Part shown: positions 1 through 52,287 of the stretch, in pieces | Numbering within the stretch: position 1 is the first letter of the stretch | Layout: the number at the start of each line of letters is the position of its first letter | NCBI GenBank assembly: GCA_013333625.2 | Contig: JABCOL020000001.1 | Coordinates: forward strand, 1 to 62,534 | DNA length: 62,534 bases | Direction of reading: 5' to 3' | Origin: Candidatus Saccharimonadota bacterium | GTDB taxonomy: Bacteria; Patescibacteriota; Saccharimonadia; Saccharimonadales; Saccharimonadaceae | Position numbers and translations under genes: made by a program | Notes under the pieces: model-generated | What the model saw: only the letters and a program-made list of their open reading frames with translations | Databases searched by the model: none | What the model was told of the DNA's origin: nothing

Positions 1-53
1 CCGGAATCGCGCTGTACGAGCTGGCGACGAGCGGCAAAACTGCCAAAAATGCC

Positions 54-125
54 TAAAATTTGCAAATTTTACGAAATAATTGCGAAAAGTATTGACTTCG
101 CAGTCCATATGTGATATATATATAT
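54..125 (+). promoter_or_regulatory. Cassette A promoter with upstream 18-bp palindrome
   Basis: TAAAATTTGCAAATTTTA 54-71; TTGACT 92-97, 17-bp spacer, TG-A-TATATA 112-120; same geometry in copies B and C. Confidence 0.7.
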
Positions 126-133
126 TAGCTTTT

Positions 134-183
134 CGCTCAAGTCATCACAAACAAAGGGCGAGAAGTGCCCTTTTACTTGAGCG
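134..183 (+). ncRNA. Structured 5' leader, copy A
   Basis: CGCTCAAGT 134-142 pairs ACTTGAGCG 175-183; AAAGGGC 153-159 pairs GCCCTTT 167-173; loop GAGAAGT; 10-nt 5' bulge. Confidence 0.7.
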
Positions 184-199
184 TGATTCTGGAGGAATC

Positions 200-616
200 A
201 TGAAGAGCTTTTTTGTTCACATCGTCGAGTTTCTTGCGCTGTTCGCCGCGGGTATCGCGGCCAGCCAGCTCATCAAGGGAGGACACCCCGCACTCTGGGT
301 GAGCATTCTCGTTATCTACGCGGGCATCATGTTGATGCGGCTCTGGTTTTCGAGAGTGGATCTCTCCATTAACAAGACACAGAAAGAGCTCCTGGAGGGG
401 CGTTTGACCACCGTGACGGCGCAGATGCGCCGGCTCGAGCTCGCACTCGTGGAGGCCTCCGTCGAGACCCTCTGGGTCTCGAGTGTTACTGAGGACGATG
501 ACGAAACCGTCTATGTAATCGAAACACCTAATCACGGGTGTTTCGTCATCATGACTCCAGCCGACAACGCCACCAAGAATGACAAGGACGCCCCCGCGGC
601 GCCCAACAAGGGCTAA
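200..616 (+). CDS. Hypothetical membrane protein, 138 aa, two N-terminal hydrophobic helices (cassette A cargo)
   Basis: GGAGG 191-195 before ATG 200; in frame with ORF 80..616; 10 of 15 Leu codons are CTC. Confidence 0.8.
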   Translation: MKSFFVHIVEFLALFAAGIAASQLIKGGHPALWVSILVIYAGIMLMRLWFSRVDLSINKTQKELLEGRLTTVTAQMRRLELALVEASVETLWVSSVTEDDDETVYVIETPNHGCFVIMTPADNATKNDKDAPAAPNKG

Positions 617-690
617 CCGCCCGCCTGAAAATAGCCCGCCTAGAGGCCACCAGCCTCGGCGCAAGGCCTTTCTGGCGGGCTATTTTCTTT
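617..690 (+). terminator. Cassette A 3' structure, probably also terminating convergent dnaE
   Basis: GAAAATAGCCCGCC 627-640 pairs GGCGGGCTATTTTC 674-687; inner hairpin GAGGC/GCCTC 643-657; T-rich tail. Confidence 0.75.
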
Positions 691-35039: not shown

Positions 35040-35990
35040 ATGAAGCGCATCACTATGGTTAAGCACCATCCATGCACGCAGTTGGCTCATTTATACGAGC
35101 ATATGTTTCTGGCGACAGCGGCCGAATTCATGTACCAGCAAGGCCAGTACCAGCTAATTGACTACACGCTAGATGGACACACTTACCCTGGCGGCATTAT
35201 CATTATTAAGAGTATTTGGCACTCGGTCGATGCCACGCGGTTAGCTAACAAGATATTATCCTTGCCGACTGATTTCGGCGAAATGGACAACGAGCCGGTT
35301 TCGCTAGCTCTGTACCGTTTGCTGGCCGAGGAGCCAAACCAGCTATACGTTGCCGACAGCGGCCGAATGATGCACGAGTTAAGACAGCTTGACTCTAGGC
35401 CATGGCAAAACATCGATAATATCAAGCGGCTGAATAGCAGCACTAGCCAAATCAGCGGTATAATTTACTCGACTAACCAGCCGTCAGCAATTCCGCGCAA
35501 ACTTTACATGTCCTTTCAGCTAACTCAGCAATTCCGCCAGCAACGACCCGAAACGTTGCCGCTATTTTATGAATACATGCACTTTTTGAACTTATCAATC
35601 AGCCAAAAGCTTAGTTTACAATTTGGCGCCTACACCGACGACAATCATATCAAATATCACGCCGAAGACATGTCTGTCACTAATACGCTGCATCTCAGTG
35701 TACAATCGGGGCCAATCCAATTTGCTGACATTATCCGCTGCGTCCAGGCCGTCGCCCGGGATTTGCGCTCGCCCGATCTGAATCAACGCTTTGCCGATTA
35801 TTTGCATAGCATATCTTATACCGATGAGCCTTCGATAGCGCCCGACATCGACCGAATGCTGCTTGATTTGGGCATTTTGCTCGGTAGTGACGGCTGGCAC
35901 GCAATTGCTACGCCAGACAACGTAAACGACGTGGCGCAAGCAACACAAATCATCGCTAAGTATGGCAGTCAGAGCGAAGTGATTGAGTAA
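35040..35990 (+). CDS. Hypothetical protein with N-terminal HxxEH (M16-like) motif
   Basis: LAHLYEHMF near N-terminus; TATAAT 7 nt before ATG. Confidence 0.7.
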   Translation: MKRITMVKHHPCTQLAHLYEHMFLATAAEFMYQQGQYQLIDYTLDGHTYPGGIIIIKSIWHSVDATRLANKILSLPTDFGEMDNEPVSLALYRLLAEEPNQLYVADSGRMMHELRQLDSRPWQNIDNIKRLNSSTSQISGIIYSTNQPSAIPRKLYMSFQLTQQFRQQRPETLPLFYEYMHFLNLSISQKLSLQFGAYTDDNHIKYHAEDMSVTNTLHLSVQSGPIQFADIIRCVQAVARDLRSPDLNQRFADYLHSISYTDEPSIAPDIDRMLLDLGILLGSDGWHAIATPDNVNDVAQATQIIAKYGSQSEVIE

Positions 35991-36481
35991 TCAAAAATTT
36001 TTACTAGAATGTTTTTATCTCGGGCTCGATCAATAGTAAATGTCGTGCCTCGGCTATTGTTCACTCGAAAAGCCACTAGTTCATCCGCCAAGTCAACAAT
36101 CTGACAGTTGCGCGCATGAAATGATTCGGCATTGACTTCAGTGAACTCAGTGACATCGTGCACAACACCAGGCCTACTCTGGCAAATCTTTTGTAAAAGA
36201 TTTGCCGTATCAACCGCATCGTCGTAGCGGCATTTACCAGCTGCCGCTCGATCGTACAATGCCTGGCAATACAACTCTAATTTCACCGGTAGAAATATAC
36301 TAAACCGCGACGCGTCCAAGCCGTTCTCATACGCCAGCCGAGCCGCCTCGTGATCGACACCAGTAGCACCGCCCGATACAATACCGCTGCCCTCAGCAAT
36401 CTTCTGACCAACAAATCGCTCAATATCGCGGCAAATCGCGTCGTTCATTTCGCGGGTGCCAACAACCGCAAGCCAATTCAT
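35969..36481 (-). CDS. SLOG (DprA/Smf-like) protein
   Basis: AVVGTR, IVSGGATGVD, FHARN...SRGT. Confidence 0.8.
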   Translation of the reverse strand: MNWLAVVGTREMNDAICRDIERFVGQKIAEGSGIVSGGATGVDHEAARLAYENGLDASRFSIFLPVKLELYCQALYDRAAAGKCRYDDAVDTANLLQKICQSRPGVVHDVTEFTEVNAESFHARNCQIVDLADELVAFRVNNSRGTTFTIDRARDKNILVKIFDYSITSL

Positions 36482-48633: not shown

Positions 48634-49290
48634 TTATTCCCCAGCCTTTTTGCTGTGCGCTGCCCGCCATTTAGCGATTTTGCCATGATGTCCGCTAAGT
48701 AGCACTTCTGGCACGCGCAAACCTTGCCATTCCTCGGGCCGGGTGTATTGCGGGTATTCTAGCGTTTCGCCGTCGCTGAAGCTCTCAATCGCTGCGCTGT
48801 TTTCGCCGCCGAGTACGCCAGGGATTAACCGCACAATCGAATCAATAATCGTCATCGCTGGCAATTCGCCGCCAGTTAGCACATAATCGCCAATACTAAG
48901 CTCTTGATCAACCAGCGCCATAATTCGCTCGTCGTAGCCCTCGTAGCGCCCGCAGATTACAATATAACCATCTTCGCTTTCGCTGTATTGCTGCGCCAAC
49001 GCCTGCCGCCAACGCTGGCCGCGCGGTGTCATGATTAAGACTTTAGCGCCAGGGTCAATCTGTTTAGCCTGCTGCACCGCATTCCATAGCGGCTCGACCA
49101 TCAGCAGCATACCATCGCCGCCGCCGTACGGCGTATCGTCGACCGTCCGGCGCGGGCCTAATCCAAACTGACGCAGATCAATCGTCGAGAGCTCAACATA
49201 GCCGTCTTTTTGCGCTTTCCACATCATCGAACTGCCGAACACGCCAGCGAACATTTCTGGGAATAAGGTAATCACCTGAATTTTTCTCAT
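48634..49290 (-). CDS. trmD: tRNA (guanine-N1)-methyltransferase
   Basis: VDDTPYGGGDGM, CGRYEGYDER, SIGDYVLTGGE, YPQYTRP. Confidence 0.97.
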   Translation of the reverse strand: MRKIQVITLFPEMFAGVFGSSMMWKAQKDGYVELSTIDLRQFGLGPRRTVDDTPYGGGDGMLLMVEPLWNAVQQAKQIDPGAKVLIMTPRGQRWRQALAQQYSESEDGYIVICGRYEGYDERIMALVDQELSIGDYVLTGGELPAMTIIDSIVRLIPGVLGGENSAAIESFSDGETLEYPQYTRPEEWQGLRVPEVLLSGHHGKIAKWRAAHSKKAGE

Positions 49291-49344
49291 CTGTTATAGT
49301 GTAGCAAGTCTTGACACGGATGTCTATCTGTGATATATATCAAC

Positions 49345-49393
49345 TTTTGCTCAAGGTAGTCTAGGGCGGAAGTCGCCCTTGCTTTGAGCAAAG
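49345..49393 (+). ncRNA. Structured 5' leader, copy B
   Basis: TTTTGCTCAAGGTA 49345-49358 pairs TGCTTTGAGCAAAG 49380-49393; AGGGCG/CGCCCT with loop GAAGT; 4-nt bulge. Confidence 0.72.
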
Positions 49394-49406
49394 AGAGGAG
49401 ACGGTC

Positions 49407-49577
49407 ATGAAGACCGTTACCGCCGCCGTCGCCCCTGACCCCGAGCCCACCGCTATCGAGCGTGCGCGTTTGCGCGCGCTTGATAACTACATCAAGGCCA
49501 AGCAGAAGGGGCGAATGTTCCGCGCGGCCTTTTGGGCCGGGGCCTTCTCAGGCCTGGGCGGCCTGAGAAGCAACTGA
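49407..49577 (+). CDS. 56-aa basic peptide MKTVTAAVAPDPEPTAIERARLRALDNYIKAKQKGRMFRAAFWAGAFSGLGGLRSN (cassette B cargo; absent from ORF track)
   Basis: Manual translation; GAGGAG 6 nt before ATG; fills the space between the conserved 5' and 3' elements. Confidence 0.78.
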   Translation: MKTVTAAVAPDPEPTAIERARLRALDNYIKAKQKGRMFRAAFWAGAFSGLGGLRSN

Positions 49578-49700
49578 GCCCACCGAAAATAGCTCGCTGA
49601 AAACTACTGTTCAATCCGGTTCGAGACGCACATTCCTGCGTTTCCTGGGTTGAATACCCAGTTTCCAGCTTGAGCACGTTTTCGGCGGGCTATTTTCATG
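49578..49700 (+). ncRNA. Cassette B extended 3' structure
   Basis: GAAAATAGCTCGCTGAAAAC 49585-49604 pairs GTTTTCGGCGGGCTATTTTC 49678-49697; inner helices TTCAATCCGG/CTGGGTTGAA and GAGACGCA/TGCGTTTC; non-Watson-Crick positions in these helices are G.U. Confidence 0.75.
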
Positions 49701-49876
49701 TCTTGCAATAATTTGCTACAATCTAGATTTTATTGCATAATAGTATTTGACTTATATTACGTTATATTTTATCTATATATTTGTGCTTTTACAAAAATAG
49801 TTGTATAGCCTCAATTGACACGTTTGGCTTTTCGTGTAATAAATTATGCCTGGCCTTCTCGAAATTTCGCCCCAAC

Positions 49877-49903
49877 AAAAAAACCGCCTAAAAAGACGGC
49901 TTT
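49877..49903 (-). terminator. Intrinsic terminator of rpsP-khpA
   Basis: Minus strand AGCCGTCT-TTTT-AGGCGGTT followed by a U-tract. Confidence 0.75.
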
Positions 49904-50006
49904 CTTGCACAAATAAGTCTCTCAAACCATTTGTAGGTTTGCTCGCAGTAGAGCTTTTGTACTTTGTTTTCGTTAGTTCAGGGTTCTCGCATGAACTTAC
50001 TTATGA

Positions 50007-50414
50007 TTATATATCAAGGTCGTCTAGTTCTGCAAGCTCTTGGCGCGACTTTTTTGCGAAATCGCTTTCGGTTTCTGCGTTTTCTGGGTCATTTTCCACA
50101 GAATCACTAGTAGTGTTTTCCACATCATTATCCACTACAGCCGAATCGGCGTCCTCGCGCTCGTCATTATTGACGATTTTCAGGTTGTAATGAGCGGTAT
50201 TTTTAGCACCCAACGCCCGCAGCAGCGTGCGCAGGCCTTGCGCGGTCGAGCCGCGGCGGCCAATCACCCGGCCCAAGTCTTCTGGATTGACAGTTAGCGT
50301 CAGCAAAACACCCTTCTCGTCGACAATCCGGTCAACAACCACATCATCTGGATGTCCTACTAGTGATTTTACGATATATTCGACAAATTCCTGGTCAATG
50401 GTCGACATGCCCAC
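50007..50414 (-). CDS. khpA: KH-domain RNA-binding protein with acidic tail
   Basis: VEYIVKSLVGHP, DLGRVIGRRG (GxxG); directly downstream of rpsP. Confidence 0.88.
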   Translation of the reverse strand: MGMSTIDQEFVEYIVKSLVGHPDDVVVDRIVDEKGVLLTLTVNPEDLGRVIGRRGSTAQGLRTLLRALGAKNTAHYNLKIVNNDEREDADSAVVDNDVENTTSDSVENDPENAETESDFAKKSRQELAELDDLDI

Positions 50415-50538
50415 GGTATCTCCTCCTTTGCGGTCACACGGTTACTATCGTACTTTTATTGTAACATGCTTTTGCTATGAAATCGAAAAACGCGCTCCAG
50501 CCATACAGTTAGAGCGCGCTAGTTCGTGATTAAAAGCG

Positions 50539-50901
50539 TTAGGCTTCAGCTGGAGCTTCTGCCTCTTCGGCAGCTGGCTCTTCTTTTGGCTGATTCTTGC
50601 GCAACTTTTCAGCATTCTTGACCGCTTTAGTCTTGCCGCCCTGGAACTCTTTAACCCATTTCGGCAGCTTGACACCAGCTTCTTTTAGCAACTTCGCAAC
50701 GCGCGGCGTCGGTTGAGCGCCGTTATCAAGGTATTTTTGAGCAGCCTCGACATTGATATTAGCGTCTTTGGTGTGCGGGTTGTAGCTGCCGACATAAGCG
50801 ACCACGCGGCCGCTCGATGGATGGCGCTGTGCTTCCTGGACGGCGACGCGGTATACCGGATAAGCCTTGCGGCCCAAACGTTGCAAACGAATTGCGAGCA
50901 T
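50539..50901 (-). CDS. rpsP: 30S ribosomal protein S16
   Basis: MLAIRLQRLGRK...YRVAV...GSYNP...GAQPT. Confidence 0.97.
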   Translation of the reverse strand: MLAIRLQRLGRKAYPVYRVAVQEAQRHPSSGRVVAYVGSYNPHTKDANINVEAAQKYLDNGAQPTPRVAKLLKEAGVKLPKWVKEFQGGKTKAVKNAEKLRKNQPKEEPAAEEAEAPAEA

Positions 50902-51170
50902 AAAATTAAAACTTCCTTTACTTCACGTTAGTACTATTGTTACTTCTGTCATATTCTAGCGTGTTACAGGTAAAATGTCAACAAAGCGCCTAAGCCGCCG
51001 CTTAGACGCCTTTTCGTTCAAGTCTAGCCTATTAACCAATTCAGGCAGAAAACACCGCTAGAGGGCGCAAAAACGGCCAAAACGGCTCAAAAACACTTAA
51101 AATTTGCAATTTTTGCGAAATAATTGCGAAAATCGTTGACATGGTGATTCATATGTGATATATATATATC

Positions 51171-51233
51171 AGCTTTTCGCTCAGAGTTACCGAAAAAGGA
51201 GCGAAAAGTCGCTCTTTTTGCTCTGTGGAAGCT
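51171..51233 (+). ncRNA. Structured 5' leader, copy C
   Basis: AGCTT/AAGCT, CAGAG/CTCTG and AAAAGGAGCGA/TCGCTCTTTTT helices; loop AAAG. Confidence 0.7.
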
Positions 51234-51248
51234 GGAAAGGAGAACGCG

Positions 51249-51497
51249 ATGGATGTCATCGTCGTCTCACTGCCTCTCATAGGAAGGTTCGCCTTTATCC
51301 CCGACAGAGATGTGCAGCTGGCTCTCAGCAACATGTCTGCGGAAGAGAAGCGAGTCGTTCTCGCTAACATGGAGAGACAGACAGCCTCTCTCCTGGCGCT
51401 CCAGTGTGCCGCCATCTTCGCCCCCGACATGTCGATCTCCAAGAGCATCGACTCTGGGTTGTACATCGCCAGTCAGATGGTGAAGATCAACTCCTAG
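51249..51497 (+). CDS. Hypothetical 82-aa protein (cassette C cargo)
   Basis: AAGGAG 6 nt before ATG 51249; codons biased to CTC/ATC/AAG/CAG. Confidence 0.78.
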   Translation: MDVIVVSLPLIGRFAFIPDRDVQLALSNMSAEEKRVVLANMERQTASLLALQCAAIFAPDMSISKSIDSGLYIASQMVKINS

Positions 51498-51500
51498 TGT

Positions 51501-51570
51501 CGAGCCCGCCGAAAATAGCTCGCTAGAGGTTTAAAACCTCAGCGCGGCCCTCTGGCGGGCTATTTTCTTT
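51501..51570 (+). terminator. Cassette C 3' structure, probably also terminating convergent rnc
   Basis: GAAAATAGCTCGCTAGAGG 51511-51529 pairs CCTCTGGCGGGCTATTTTC 51549-51567; alternative inner hairpin GAGGTT/AACCTC. Confidence 0.75.
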
Positions 51571-51576
51571 GGTTTT

Positions 51577-52287
51577 TTATTGCCGCTTTCTATACTCTTC
51601 CAGCGCTGCCCGGGCGGCTTGCTGCTGGGCGGTTTGTTTGCTAGGGCCGATGCCTTTACCCATCAGTTTGTCGCCGACATAAGCGCCGAGCGTGAAGACC
51701 TTGTCGTGGTCTGGGCCGTCTTCGGCGATGACTTTGTAGACTGGCGTAGCGCCGTCGACGCGCTGGCTGATTTCTTGCAGATGGCTTTTGGGGTCGCGCC
51801 AAGAGCCGCTCTCTAAAATCCCGTCAAGCTTACTGATTGTGTGCTTCTCGATAAAGGCCGCCGCGGCATCATAACCGCGCTCCAAATAAATCGAACCGAT
51901 CACTGCTTCGTAAGCATTGGCTAGAATCTGATGGCGCGCCCGCTCGGAACCATGCTTCTCGCCGCGGCTCATCCGCACCAATGGCTCATAACCAAGCTCT
52001 TCGCCAGATTTAGCGTTGCTAGTGGTGTTAACTAGCGCCGCCCGCCAGCTAGTCAGGATTCCTTCCGGCTCGCTATAATGTTTATATAAATAATCCGTCA
52101 CCACCAGCTCTAGCACGGCGTCGCCCAGAAATTCTAAACGCTCATTGTGCTCGCTCACCGATTTTTTGTGCTCGTTGACATAGCTGCGATGCGTCAAAGC
52201 AGTAATCAGAAGCTGAATGTCTTTATATTCAAAACCTAATTTCTGCTTCGCCCAATCTTGGTACGGCCCGGTTGGCATACCGCTCAT
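51577..52287 (-). CDS. rnc: Ribonuclease III
   Basis: ALTHRS, NERLEFLGDAVL, dsRBD DPKSHLQE. Confidence 0.97.
   Translation of the reverse strand: MSGMPTGPYQDWAKQKLGFEYKDIQLLITALTHRSYVNEHKKSVSEHNERLEFLGDAVLELVVTDYLYKHYSEPEGILTSWRAALVNTTSNAKSGEELGYEPLVRMSRGEKHGSERARHQILANAYEAVIGSIYLERGYDAAAAFIEKHTISKLDGILESGSWRDPKSHLQEISQRVDGATPVYKVIAEDGPDHDKVFTLGAYVGDKLMGKGIGPSKQTAQQQAARAALEEYRKRQ

Follow-up and report, generated by a model that had tools for sequence, protein, structure and literature searches.

In Borrelia, the upstream-homology-box (UHB) families (ospE/ospF/elp, 'erp') are plasmid-borne lipoprotein genes that share a signal peptide and whose diversity is generated by recombination, and in replacement-type flexible genomic islands, such as the O-antigen and capsule loci, large multi-gene clusters lie between housekeeping genes. 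Here, we analysed a stretch of 62,534 nucleotides from a Candidatus Saccharimonadota bacterium (assembly GCA_013333625.2, contig JABCOL020000001.1; hereafter the window, to which positions refer), which carries three dispersed cassettes, A, B and C, at about 44-690, 49311-49700 and 51088-51570. Each of them is made of one small open reading frame (ORF), the cargo, enclosed by a conserved 5' and a conserved 3' element, the wrappers. Our best reading is that the window cassettes are three of about eight fixed monocistronic slots that are confined to one genus of oral Saccharibacteria. These slots would form a co-regulated set of fixed expression sites for hypervariable small membrane proteins, which are exchanged by homologous recombination; we put the probability of this reading at about 0.55. 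Polymorphic envelope genes exchanged via conserved flanks are a known kind of system, and what is unusual here is that two structured RNA elements serve as the flanks, at about eight loci in a minimal genome.

The resemblance to the Borrelia UHB families lies in a conserved block of promoter and leader placed on diverse, mosaic genes for putative small envelope proteins at several loci. Unlike those families, the cassettes are chromosomal and syntenic, have no common signal peptide, and carry structured RNA that is conserved at both the 5' and the 3' end. With the replacement islands, the cassettes have in common a fixed position, conserved flanks, unrelated content in close relatives and alleles that are older than the species; they differ in being a single small gene between regulatory RNA elements of about 100 nt, at about eight loci.

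Shared layout of the three cassettes

The same ordered parts were found in A, B and C: a TG-extended promoter of the form TTGAC(T/A)-N17-TATATA is followed by a bulged 5' hairpin, then by a small ORF with a strong Shine-Dalgarno sequence in front of it, and finally by a 3' stem-loop (Table 1). This order had been described in the initial annotation, made from the letters of the window, and every part was read where that annotation had placed it, with chance excluded by shuffles, repeat searches and a covariance model. Its end for cassette A (690) was likewise correct, and a conserved A/T-rich block lies upstream of the A promoter from about position 44. The 17-nt promoter spacer ends in TGA in all three cassettes. 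A repeat search of the window recovered the promoter block and the 3' arm each as a three-copy family, as well as a 96-nt block upstream of A and C that is 84% identical between the two. Beside the -35 hexamer, the upstream block of A contains the motif ATTGCGAAAA, which was seen again in slots 0-3 of relatives; judged from its sequence, the block could possibly act as an UP element or a factor site. The units are spaced 1.4-49 kb apart, each with its own promoter.

Covariation in the 5' and 3' elements

The 5' hairpin is conserved as a structure. In an alignment of 40 leaders (36 distinct), 94.2% of the cells of the hairpin were paired, versus 32-49% when the 3' partner was slid by 1-3 columns, and two-sided changes occupied 36 cells versus 2-10 in the slid controls; neither the observed pairing nor the covariation score was reached in any of 500 shuffles. 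The outer stem occurs as CUCAAG/CUUGAG, CUCAAAG/CUUUGAG, CUCGAG/CUCGAG and CUCAGAG/CUCUGUG, both stems of cassette C show paired changes relative to A and B, and G.U is found at two pairs. A covariance model of the 5' leader (R1) gave exactly three matches in the window, all of them cassettes, with E-values of 2.5e-17 to 3.6e-11. Downstream of this hairpin, at least two Shine-Dalgarno bases are paired in a second hairpin in 27 of the 36 leaders, often together with the AUG (mean z -2.6), and paired changes were also observed there (GAUUC/GAAUC, GGUCC/GGAACC and GAUCC/GGAUC).

At the 3' end, the inverted repeat GAAAATAGCYCGC...GGCGGGCTATTTTC is located at 627-687, 49585-49697 and 51511-51567, preceded by a box that reads GCCCGCC in A and C or GCCCACC in B. 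When the 3' 13-mer was searched with at most one mismatch, the window contained 7 matches versus 0.33 expected, a number that none of 100 shuffles gave; six of them are the arms of the three 3' elements, and the seventh (23308) lies inside a RelA/SpoT gene. Between clades, the stem of 14-19 bp differs by paired changes at three of its positions (AU/CG, GC/AU and GC/AU; 30 long forms aligned), and G.U occurs at two stem positions, in 26 and 19 of the 30 forms, which can pair only in the sense RNA. The G.U pairs in the 3' stem and the 5' hairpin together indicate that what is constrained is the transcript of the cassette itself, rather than folded DNA or the RNA of the convergent gene.

The 3' element has the build of an intrinsic terminator, with a G+C-rich stem AGCCCGCC/GGCGGGCU followed by AUUUUCUUU and folds of -35 to -64 kcal/mol (-64.3 kcal/mol, z -7.2, for B), and in A and C the 3' arm is also picked up by a consensus terminator scan. 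The 3' stem-loop of A is a predicted terminator that is shared with the convergent dnaE gene. Of 86 distinct 3' elements, 67 have a mini-hairpin GGGY-N3-10-RCCC in front of the stem, whereas 200 shuffles gave 0.94 on average and never more than 4; in 40 elements the stop codon lies within its loop. A mini-hairpin around the stop codon accounts for the C-terminal KG, EG or RG that was found in 46 of 92 unrelated cargos. The box GCCCGCC can pair alternatively with GGGC or with the 3' arm, according to the fold of copy C. A distant clade of the genus shows a concerted change of the box (GCCCGCC to GCCCACC), the 5' arm (GCYCGC to GCTCAC) and the 3' arm (GGCGGGC to GGTGGGC); on sequence grounds, this fits alternative RNA pairings, and a protein site present in three copies would be compatible with it as well.

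A long form of the 3' module contains an extra branched insert of about 85 nt that is conserved in both clades, and the short forms look like deletion derivatives of it; the centre of the inverted repeat varies from 23 to 94 nt. A pairing of CTTGAGC in the long form with the 5' hairpin was considered and dropped, because RNAalifold pairs CTTGAGC locally with TTCAA and no matching 5'/3' variation was seen. At the Rfam gathering threshold, only two tRNAs were matched in the window, and in the loci of four relatives with six cassettes (E<=1) only a chance ryfA fragment, away from both elements, was found; no description of either element was found in the literature, as far as listings and abstracts show. 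Within the reach of these sources, the 5' and 3' elements are undescribed structured RNA motifs with covariation, in agreement with the initial annotation, which had proposed conserved RNA structures at both ends and had not recognised them as a described element.

Distribution and pairing of the two ends

The exact 3' arm was detected in 10 of 41 relatives, namely in nine of 25 genomes of the same genus (2-10 matches each) and, with one match, in one other genome; the reversed control pattern had no match among the 41. With a profile of the three 5' regions, essentially every locus then showed a 5' element on the same strand, at 250-700 nt upstream from the 3' arm, giving 44 cassettes (loci L003-L043 and the window), and the two 5' matches lacking a 3' partner both lie at locus ends. 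In the distant clade, a 3' counterpart was found in 10 of 10 loci detected by the 5' model alone. The R1 model had matches in 66 of 101 genomes of the genus, mostly 6-10 per genome in genomes of 0.8-0.9 Mb and 1-5 weaker ones in genomes of 1.0-1.1 Mb, and none in 150 genomes of other genera of the order. When one genome for each of 185,579 species was searched with the two-armed 3' pattern, 114 stretches were obtained; the 80 listed of these all have Saccharibacteria titles, e.g., 'Candidatus Nanosynbacter sp. TM7-075' and 'Candidatus Saccharimonas sp.'. No viral contig had the short or the long 3' form.

The further copies with diverse cargo that the initial annotation had looked to as support for a system thus exist in number: the 119 cassettes encode 92 distinct cargo proteins, which fall into 20 single-linkage families. 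The cassettes do not resemble prophage morons, with 0 viral contigs and housekeeping genes as neighbours, or diversity-generating retroelements, as a reverse transcriptase (RVT_1) was found in one of five cassette-carrying genomes and the cargos of the 20 families are mutually unrelated.

Fixed slots and exchanged cargo

Clustering of the flanks in nine genomes placed all cassettes in eight syntenic groups, corresponding to about eight slots per genome of about 0.9 Mb; A occupies slot 0, C slot 3 and B slot 5. Within a slot, nucleotide identity is mostly 90-97% in the flanks, mostly 85-100% in the promoter and leader and 90-100% in the 3' module, and between these wrappers it drops to 62-80% in the coding sequence, a value that for many pairs means unrelated cargo. 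In slot 0, six genomes encode a 138-143-aa protein and two an unrelated protein of 60-63 aa; slot 3 is filled by cargo C in three genomes and by unrelated coiled-coil proteins in another three. BLAST alignments of slot 0 with genomes that carry the other cargo end at 205, just past ATGAAG, and restart at 604 (..AAGGGCTAA), and those of slot 3 end at 51219, past the 5' hairpin, and restart at 51503, past the stop codon.

Cassettes and flanks can also be discordant. In slot 2, genomes G017 and G019 have 99.6% identity in the coding sequence and 100% in the leader with flanks of 85-90%, while G019 and G006 have 99.2% in the upstream flank and 72% in the coding sequence; in slot 5, G009 and G001 have 99.8% in the upstream flank and 71% in the coding sequence. 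Promoter types are swapped between slots. In a comparison of the window with G001, the nearest relative compared, TrmD, the KH protein, RpsP and Rnc showed 96-99% protein identity and synonymous divergences (dS) of 0.07-0.17; the dnaE rows (frame and truncation) and the '160aa' rows (a gene outside the locus) were excluded here. The cargos showed 44% identity and dS 1.04 for A, 36% and 0.92 for B, and 87% and 0.25 for C. Cargo dS is therefore 5-10 times that of the neighbouring genes for A and B and about twice for C, which indicates that the alleles of A and B are much older than the genomes carrying them. The 29 slot-0 sequences are mosaics, in which 8 x 10 x 11 block haplotypes occur in 21 combinations with four-gamete violations for some block pairs. 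A silent donor store of the pilS type was searched for the cargo-A family in five genomes and none was found, as this family occurs only in expression slots. Taken together, the breakpoints, the mosaics, the dS values and the discordance of flanks and cassettes indicate replacement and reshuffling by homologous recombination with alleles of the population, anchored in the wrappers.

Could these loci instead be an ordinary paralogous family of orphan genes, in which the wrappers were inherited by duplication and the cargo evolves fast, as small genes under weak constraint do, with no common regulation or exchange mechanism? The slots are indeed syntenic and old, distant paralogy connects some cargos across slots (0, 1 and part of 6), and the ratio of nonsynonymous to synonymous divergence (dN/dS) of 0.47 can be taken as relaxed constraint. 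However, the wrappers exceed the coding sequence in conservation and carry compensatory changes, and the 3' module, with its 85-nt branched insert and mini-hairpin, goes far beyond what a terminator requires. Fast evolution in place also fits poorly with the raised dS of cargos A and B, with whole-cargo replacement whose breakpoints lie at the wrapper edges, and with near-identical cassettes despite diverged flanks. We therefore consider a plain paralogous family unlikely.

In genus members with no R1 match, the gap between the KH gene and trmD still holds small genes on the opposite strand. Examples are L177 (G022) 715-1500 and L175 (G020) 2140-2840, with a 37-aa hydrophobic ORF followed by a degenerate ...GGCGGGCTACTTTC, and a 107-136-aa tail-anchored protein (MEFET.../MDSEL...). 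Small genes in this gap with no recognisable wrapper indicate that the slot is older than the recognisable wrappers.

Comparison with recombinase-based elements

The exchange of cargo raises the question of a site-specific cassette system, integron-like or resembling miniature inverted-repeat transposable elements (MITEs), in which the three GCCCRCC boxes and the inverted repeat would be sites of a dedicated recombinase. As with integron cassettes, an imperfect inverted repeat whose centre varies (23-94 nt, as in attC) stands behind each of the interchangeable, unrelated small ORFs of deviant codon usage, and the three-way concerted change of box and arms between clades would also suit recombinase sites. 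Tyrosine recombinases are encoded in five of five cassette-carrying genomes, not beside the cassettes. One such gene is syntenic: a 215-aa tyrosine-recombinase-like frame lies about 6.5 kb from slot 2 (G017:C1:455246-455737, G019:C2:148976-149467 and G009:C2:7153-7644).

In contrast to integrons, there is no IntI, attI or array here; the cassettes are dispersed at fixed syntenic positions, have their own promoter and 5' untranslated region, and possess stems with G.U pairs, which fit RNA and not folded DNA. Cores of the attC type (RYYYAAC...GTTRRRY) are absent, the arms reading GAAAATAGCYCGC...GGCGGGCTATTTTC in all 87 distinct elements listed. None of the 63 window ORFs encodes an integrase, transposase or reverse transcriptase (Pfam, E<=1e-5), so that no recombinase gene adjoins any window cassette; the initial annotation had likewise reported plus-strand cassettes among minus-strand housekeeping genes with no transposase or integrase nearby. 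Breakpoints also fall inside the coding sequence and give mosaic alleles, as homologous recombination would. The likeness to MITEs and to palindromic intergenic repeats such as ERIC, Correia and BOX, which serve as terminators or stabilise RNA, consists of a 60-120-nt imperfect palindrome with conserved terminal inverted repeats that occurs in several copies and in the 3' untranslated region between convergent genes; these cassettes, however, have about eight copies, nearly all with a 5' element and a cargo ORF, and are syntenic across species. No target-site duplication was found, since the flanks GCCCGCC.. and TTTGG.. are not duplications and all copies fall in the eight syntenic groups. A dedicated site-specific system is accordingly quite improbable. 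The gene-capture element that the initial annotation had offered as an alternative holds in so far as the cargo is exchanged; its mobile part does not, as the slots are fixed and syntenic and the exchange resembles homologous recombination, not transposition.

Cargo proteins

Cargos A, B and C belong to three different BLAST families at E<1e-4, in line with the mutual dissimilarity noted at the outset. The 92 distinct cargos are 25-190 aa long; 64 of them have at least 60 aa (length bins), and cargos of 51-65 aa occur in slots 4 and 5. A membrane helix, defined as at least one hydrophobic 19-mer with a Kyte-Doolittle mean of at least 1.6, is predicted in 71 of the 92. Some types combine an N-terminal anchor with an Ala/Arg-rich helix, others are bundles of two or three helices or tail-anchored coiled coils, and a further type is the slot-0 architecture that cargo A represents. 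The AlphaFold2 (AF2) model of cargo A is of low confidence (pLDDT 63.9, pTM 0.24). Over 147 homologous cargo pairs the median dN/dS is 0.47, with a value above 1 in one pair, and this together with the GC3 periodicity (GC3, G+C content at third codon positions) indicates that the cargos are real, constrained proteins.

Among 5.8 billion proteins, cargo A has 40 homologues (99-45% identity), C has 6 and B has 7, and all of them are encoded on small or Saccharibacteria-sized contigs. The homologues of cargo A are named 'hypothetical protein' only, and the sole homologue with a named source, a 'hypothetical protein' from TM7 phylum sp. oral taxon 346, was found for cargo C. PHROGs gave only weak matches for 3 of 19 cargos, to families without assigned function or to a signal-peptide motif. 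Rows for LmuB and Cas1 obtained with one coiled-coil cargo were set aside as low-complexity matches. In a protein atlas search, the scores for cargo A (<=0.81) were within the range of shuffled proteins, and nothing was found for cargo C. In the distant clade (L165-L170 and L172), the same wrappers enclose hydrophobic peptides of 25-30 aa with acidic tails (e.g., ORFs of 26 and 30 aa), which by analogy are reminiscent of type I toxins or small membrane regulators.

In type I toxin-antitoxin systems (e.g., par/Fst, hok/sok, TxpA/RatA), genes for small membrane peptides occur in multiple copies, a structured leader hides the ribosome-binding site, and the terminator is bidirectional. The cassettes might thus encode small toxic membrane peptides on stable, silent mRNAs held in check by an antisense or trans-acting RNA. 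The hidden Shine-Dalgarno and AUG in 27 of 36 leaders, a terminator that looks bidirectional in its fold, the several copies per genome, the membrane helices in 71 of 92 cargos and the hydrophobic peptides with charged tails of the distant clade all agree with it. On the other side, no antisense RNA gene is evident, with no conserved antisense promoter seen in sequence scans, and copies B and C lack the occlusion. The convergent dnaE (stop at 714) and rnc (end at 51577) stop 27 and 10 nt past the terminators of A and C, too close for an antitoxin gene on the 3' side. Many cargos greatly exceed type I toxins in size, are mutually unrelated and are swapped between strains, the coiled-coil and beta-domain cargos of 80-190 aa being unlike known type I toxins, and PADLOC returned nothing beyond coiled-coil-type matches for one cargo. 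On balance, toxin-antitoxin function of this type seems improbable.

Codon dialect of the cargo

The initial annotation had remarked on 'host-like codons' in the cargo, and this remark rests on a real anomaly. The cargos of the window have a GC3 of 0.75-0.80 versus 0.557+-0.043, with a maximum of 0.636, in 35 long window ORFs, and over all distinct cargos GC3 is 0.726+-0.093 (n=92), with 73 of the 92 at 0.64 or above. The shift is more than a general gain of GC: as fractions within each amino acid, cargo versus housekeeping usage is 0.42 versus 0.05 for CTC, 0.44 versus 0.09 for CCC, 0.23 versus 0.03 for TCC, 0.87 versus 0.39 for AAG, 0.31 versus 0.06 for AGA+AGG and 0.40 versus 0.13 for GGA+GGG, and usage is lowered for CCG (0.22 versus 0.58) and TCG (0.12 versus 0.29). 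The correlation (r) of relative synonymous codon usage is 0.31 between cargo and housekeeping genes, 0.48 between cargo and the tuf and fus genes of the nearest relative, and 0.75 between housekeeping genes and tuf and fus. The dinucleotide odds of the cargo deviate likewise, with 1.05 versus 1.38 for CG and 1.30 versus 0.83 for TC.

Several simple causes were rejected. GC-biased gene conversion alone does not fit, because NCG codons fall and AGR codons rise; nor does translational selection alone, because tuf and fus have the same preference for C-ending codons as the cargo but avoid CCC, TCC, AGR and GGR; and strand bias and membrane-protein composition are countered by the ordinary GC3 (0.31-0.64) of 16 other small, hypothetical or membrane ORFs in the window. 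Possible sources are a separate recombining pool of cassette genes, as in integron cassettes, selection on the mRNAs, or host-directed mRNAs.

The last of these had been put forward in the initial annotation, in which the wrapper tags transcripts for export and the ribosomes of an actinobacterial host translate the cargo. One RNA wrapper around unrelated cargos would suit such a role, as would a dialect that is unlike that of the housekeeping genes and of the other small or membrane ORFs and is rich in CTC, CCC, TCC, AAG, GAG and CAG, codons that are common in high-GC Actinobacteria. However, AGA/AGG make up 31% of the Arg codons and GGA/GGG 40% of the Gly codons of the cargo, and both are rare in those bacteria; the preference for C-ending codons is partly common to the epibiont's own tuf and fus; and the leaders show ordinary features of self-translation control. 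No export machinery or signal was found here, and we know of none for such mRNAs. Together with the predicted membrane helices in most cargos, the occurrence of the element only in Saccharibacteria among the 80 listed of 114 stretches, and cargo homologues on small or Saccharibacteria-sized contigs, this leaves the proposal with nothing found in its favour, and we regard it as extremely unlikely. The 5' and 3' structures might also be an RNA address label for a special fate, such as localised or conditional translation at host contact, packaging, or transfer to the host. The codon dialect would then be foreign because the conditions or the machinery of translation differ between these messages and the bulk of the epibiont's mRNAs; we hold this to be very improbable.

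A slot model and its weak points

Under the preferred reading of fixed, co-regulated expression slots, each slot would combine a near-consensus extended -10 promoter, a short leader starting with AGCUUUU, the bulged 5' hairpin and a strong Shine-Dalgarno sequence with, in many copies, a second hairpin occluding the ribosome-binding site and start codon, a mini-hairpin at the stop codon and an intrinsic terminator with a long stem. Its product would be a small protein of 25-190 aa, usually membrane-embedded and highly polymorphic in the population. The wrappers would give common strong transcription, RNA stability and gated translation, and in this way form a regulon; they would double as homology arms, by which alleles from relatives replace, or recombine with, the resident cargo. 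The cargo proteins would sit in the cell envelope, where frequency-dependent selection, exerted by the bacterial host, phages or the human host, could maintain their diversity. We infer the two steps that lead from common signals to a regulon and from a membrane helix to an interface protein. Among the alternatives named in the initial annotation, a co-regulated regulon of small effectors or toxins comes closest to this reading.

Several points weigh against it. Promoter strength, transcript ends and translation gating are model-based predictions, and of the window copies B and C lack both the Shine-Dalgarno hairpin (fold of leaders) and the mini-hairpin. Most loci were collected through the exact 3' arm, which makes the 3' conservation partly a matter of ascertainment and the 5' element the independent evidence. 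The overall dN/dS is below 1, with no gene-wide positive selection in 147 pairs, and local hypermutation, e.g., from head-on transcription, could be an alternative cause of the raised dS. None of 38 cargos tested passed the Pfam cut-off, and PHROGs and PADLOC gave only coiled-coil noise on the cargos. Finally, the codon dialect has no explanation in the slot model and is a separate puzzle.

Saccharibacteria genomes of about 0.9 Mb have almost no spare DNA, yet eight to ten elaborately wrapped slots are maintained in this lineage, and their sole variable part is a small, mostly membrane-embedded protein that differs between near-identical strains, a signature of interface genes under conflict. 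The partners in such a conflict may be the bacterial host, phages or human immunity, and the cargos are candidates for determinants of host range and attachment of these epibionts. The two RNA elements are suitable for RNA family libraries. If short wrappers indeed suffice for cargo replacement, they could also be used as a landing pad and expression cassette in genetic work on these bacteria, which are difficult to manipulate.

Features and neighbours in the window

Table 1 Positions of the cassette parts in the window; hairpins and stem-loops are predicted folds.
Feature	Position	Strand	Details
A upstream block AAAATTTGCAAATTTTACGAAATAATTGCGAAAAGTA, A/T-rich	44..91	+	84% identity to 51088-51135 upstream of C
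A promoter	92..120	+	-35 TTGACT 92-97, TG 112-113, -10 TATATA 115-120; (TA)n to 126
A 5' hairpin	134..183	+	outer stem CGCUCAAGU/ACUUGAGCG, inner stem AAAGGGCG/UGCCCUUU, loop AGAAG; minimum free energy (MFE) fold; 83.9 bits
A second hairpin	183..202	+	over Shine-Dalgarno GGAGG (191-195) and AUG (200-202); MFE -6.7 kcal/mol, z -4.1
Cargo A, 138 aa	200..616	+	two predicted membrane helices, long helix, three-strand beta meander, acidic tail; GC3 0.754
A mini-hairpin GGGC-UAACC-GCCC	610..625	+	stop codon (614-616) in loop; GCCCGCC box 619-625
A 3' stem-loop	627..690	+	arms GAAAAUAGCCCGCC 627-640 and GGCGGGCUAUUUUC 674-687, then UUU; -50.9 kcal/mol, z -5.7
B promoter TTGACA-N17-TATATA with TG	49311..49339	+	-35 49311-49316, -10 49334-49339
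B 5' hairpin	49349..49389	+	outer stem GCUCAAGG/CUUUGAGC, inner stem GGGCG/CGCCC, loop GAAGU; 58.3 bits
Cargo B, 56 aa	49407..49577	+	GC3 0.804
B 3' module, long form	49578..49700	+	box GCCCACC 49578-49584; 19-bp outer stem 49585-49603/49679-49697; branched inner part of ~75 nt
C upstream block and promoter	51088..51164	+	TTGACA 51136-51141, TG, TATATA 51159-51164
C 5' hairpin	51178..51228	+	outer stem CUCAGAG/CUCUGUG, inner stem GAGCG/CGCUC, loop AAAAGU; 63.4 bits
Cargo C, 82 aa	51249..51497	+	no predicted membrane helix; GC3 0.756
C 3' module	51504..51570	+	box GCCCGCC 51504-51510; arms 51511-51524 and 51554-51567, then UUU

The (TA)n tract that continues the -10 element (115-126, 49334-49341 and 51159-51170) varies in length among orthologous slots, with about 4-7 repeats. 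This simple-sequence repeat could alter the distance between the transcript start and the 5' hairpin, or tune the strength of the promoter.

The neighbours of the window cassettes are dnaE, trmD, a KhpA-like KH gene, rpsP and rnc, all on the minus strand. Within 48634-50901, cassette B lies on the opposite strand inside what is elsewhere an rpsP-KH-(rimM)-trmD operon; no rimM-like ORF was seen between the KH gene and trmD in the window. The promoter of B is only 20 nt from the divergent trmD start codon (49290), and a candidate trmD promoter, TAGACA-17-TACACT with TG (minus strand, 49326-49298), overlaps the -35 region of B. Past cassette B, no convincing ORF was seen in an AT-rich stretch of about 300 nt (49698-50006), which has several promoter-like sites on the two strands. 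Other members of the genus have a second small gene here, of which this stretch may be a remnant.

The GC skew of the plus strand is negative across 1-60000 (-0.06 to -0.12; -0.083 overall) and positive in the last 2.5 kb. This skew, together with the position of most genes on the minus strand, indicates that the three cassettes are probably transcribed head-on to replication. The window also encodes RmuC and a DprA-like fragment. The latter is a 170-aa ORF (35972-36481) that matches only positions 47-98 of the 212-position DprA profile (DNA_processg_A), and by its sequence it may be a truncated or divergent competence gene.

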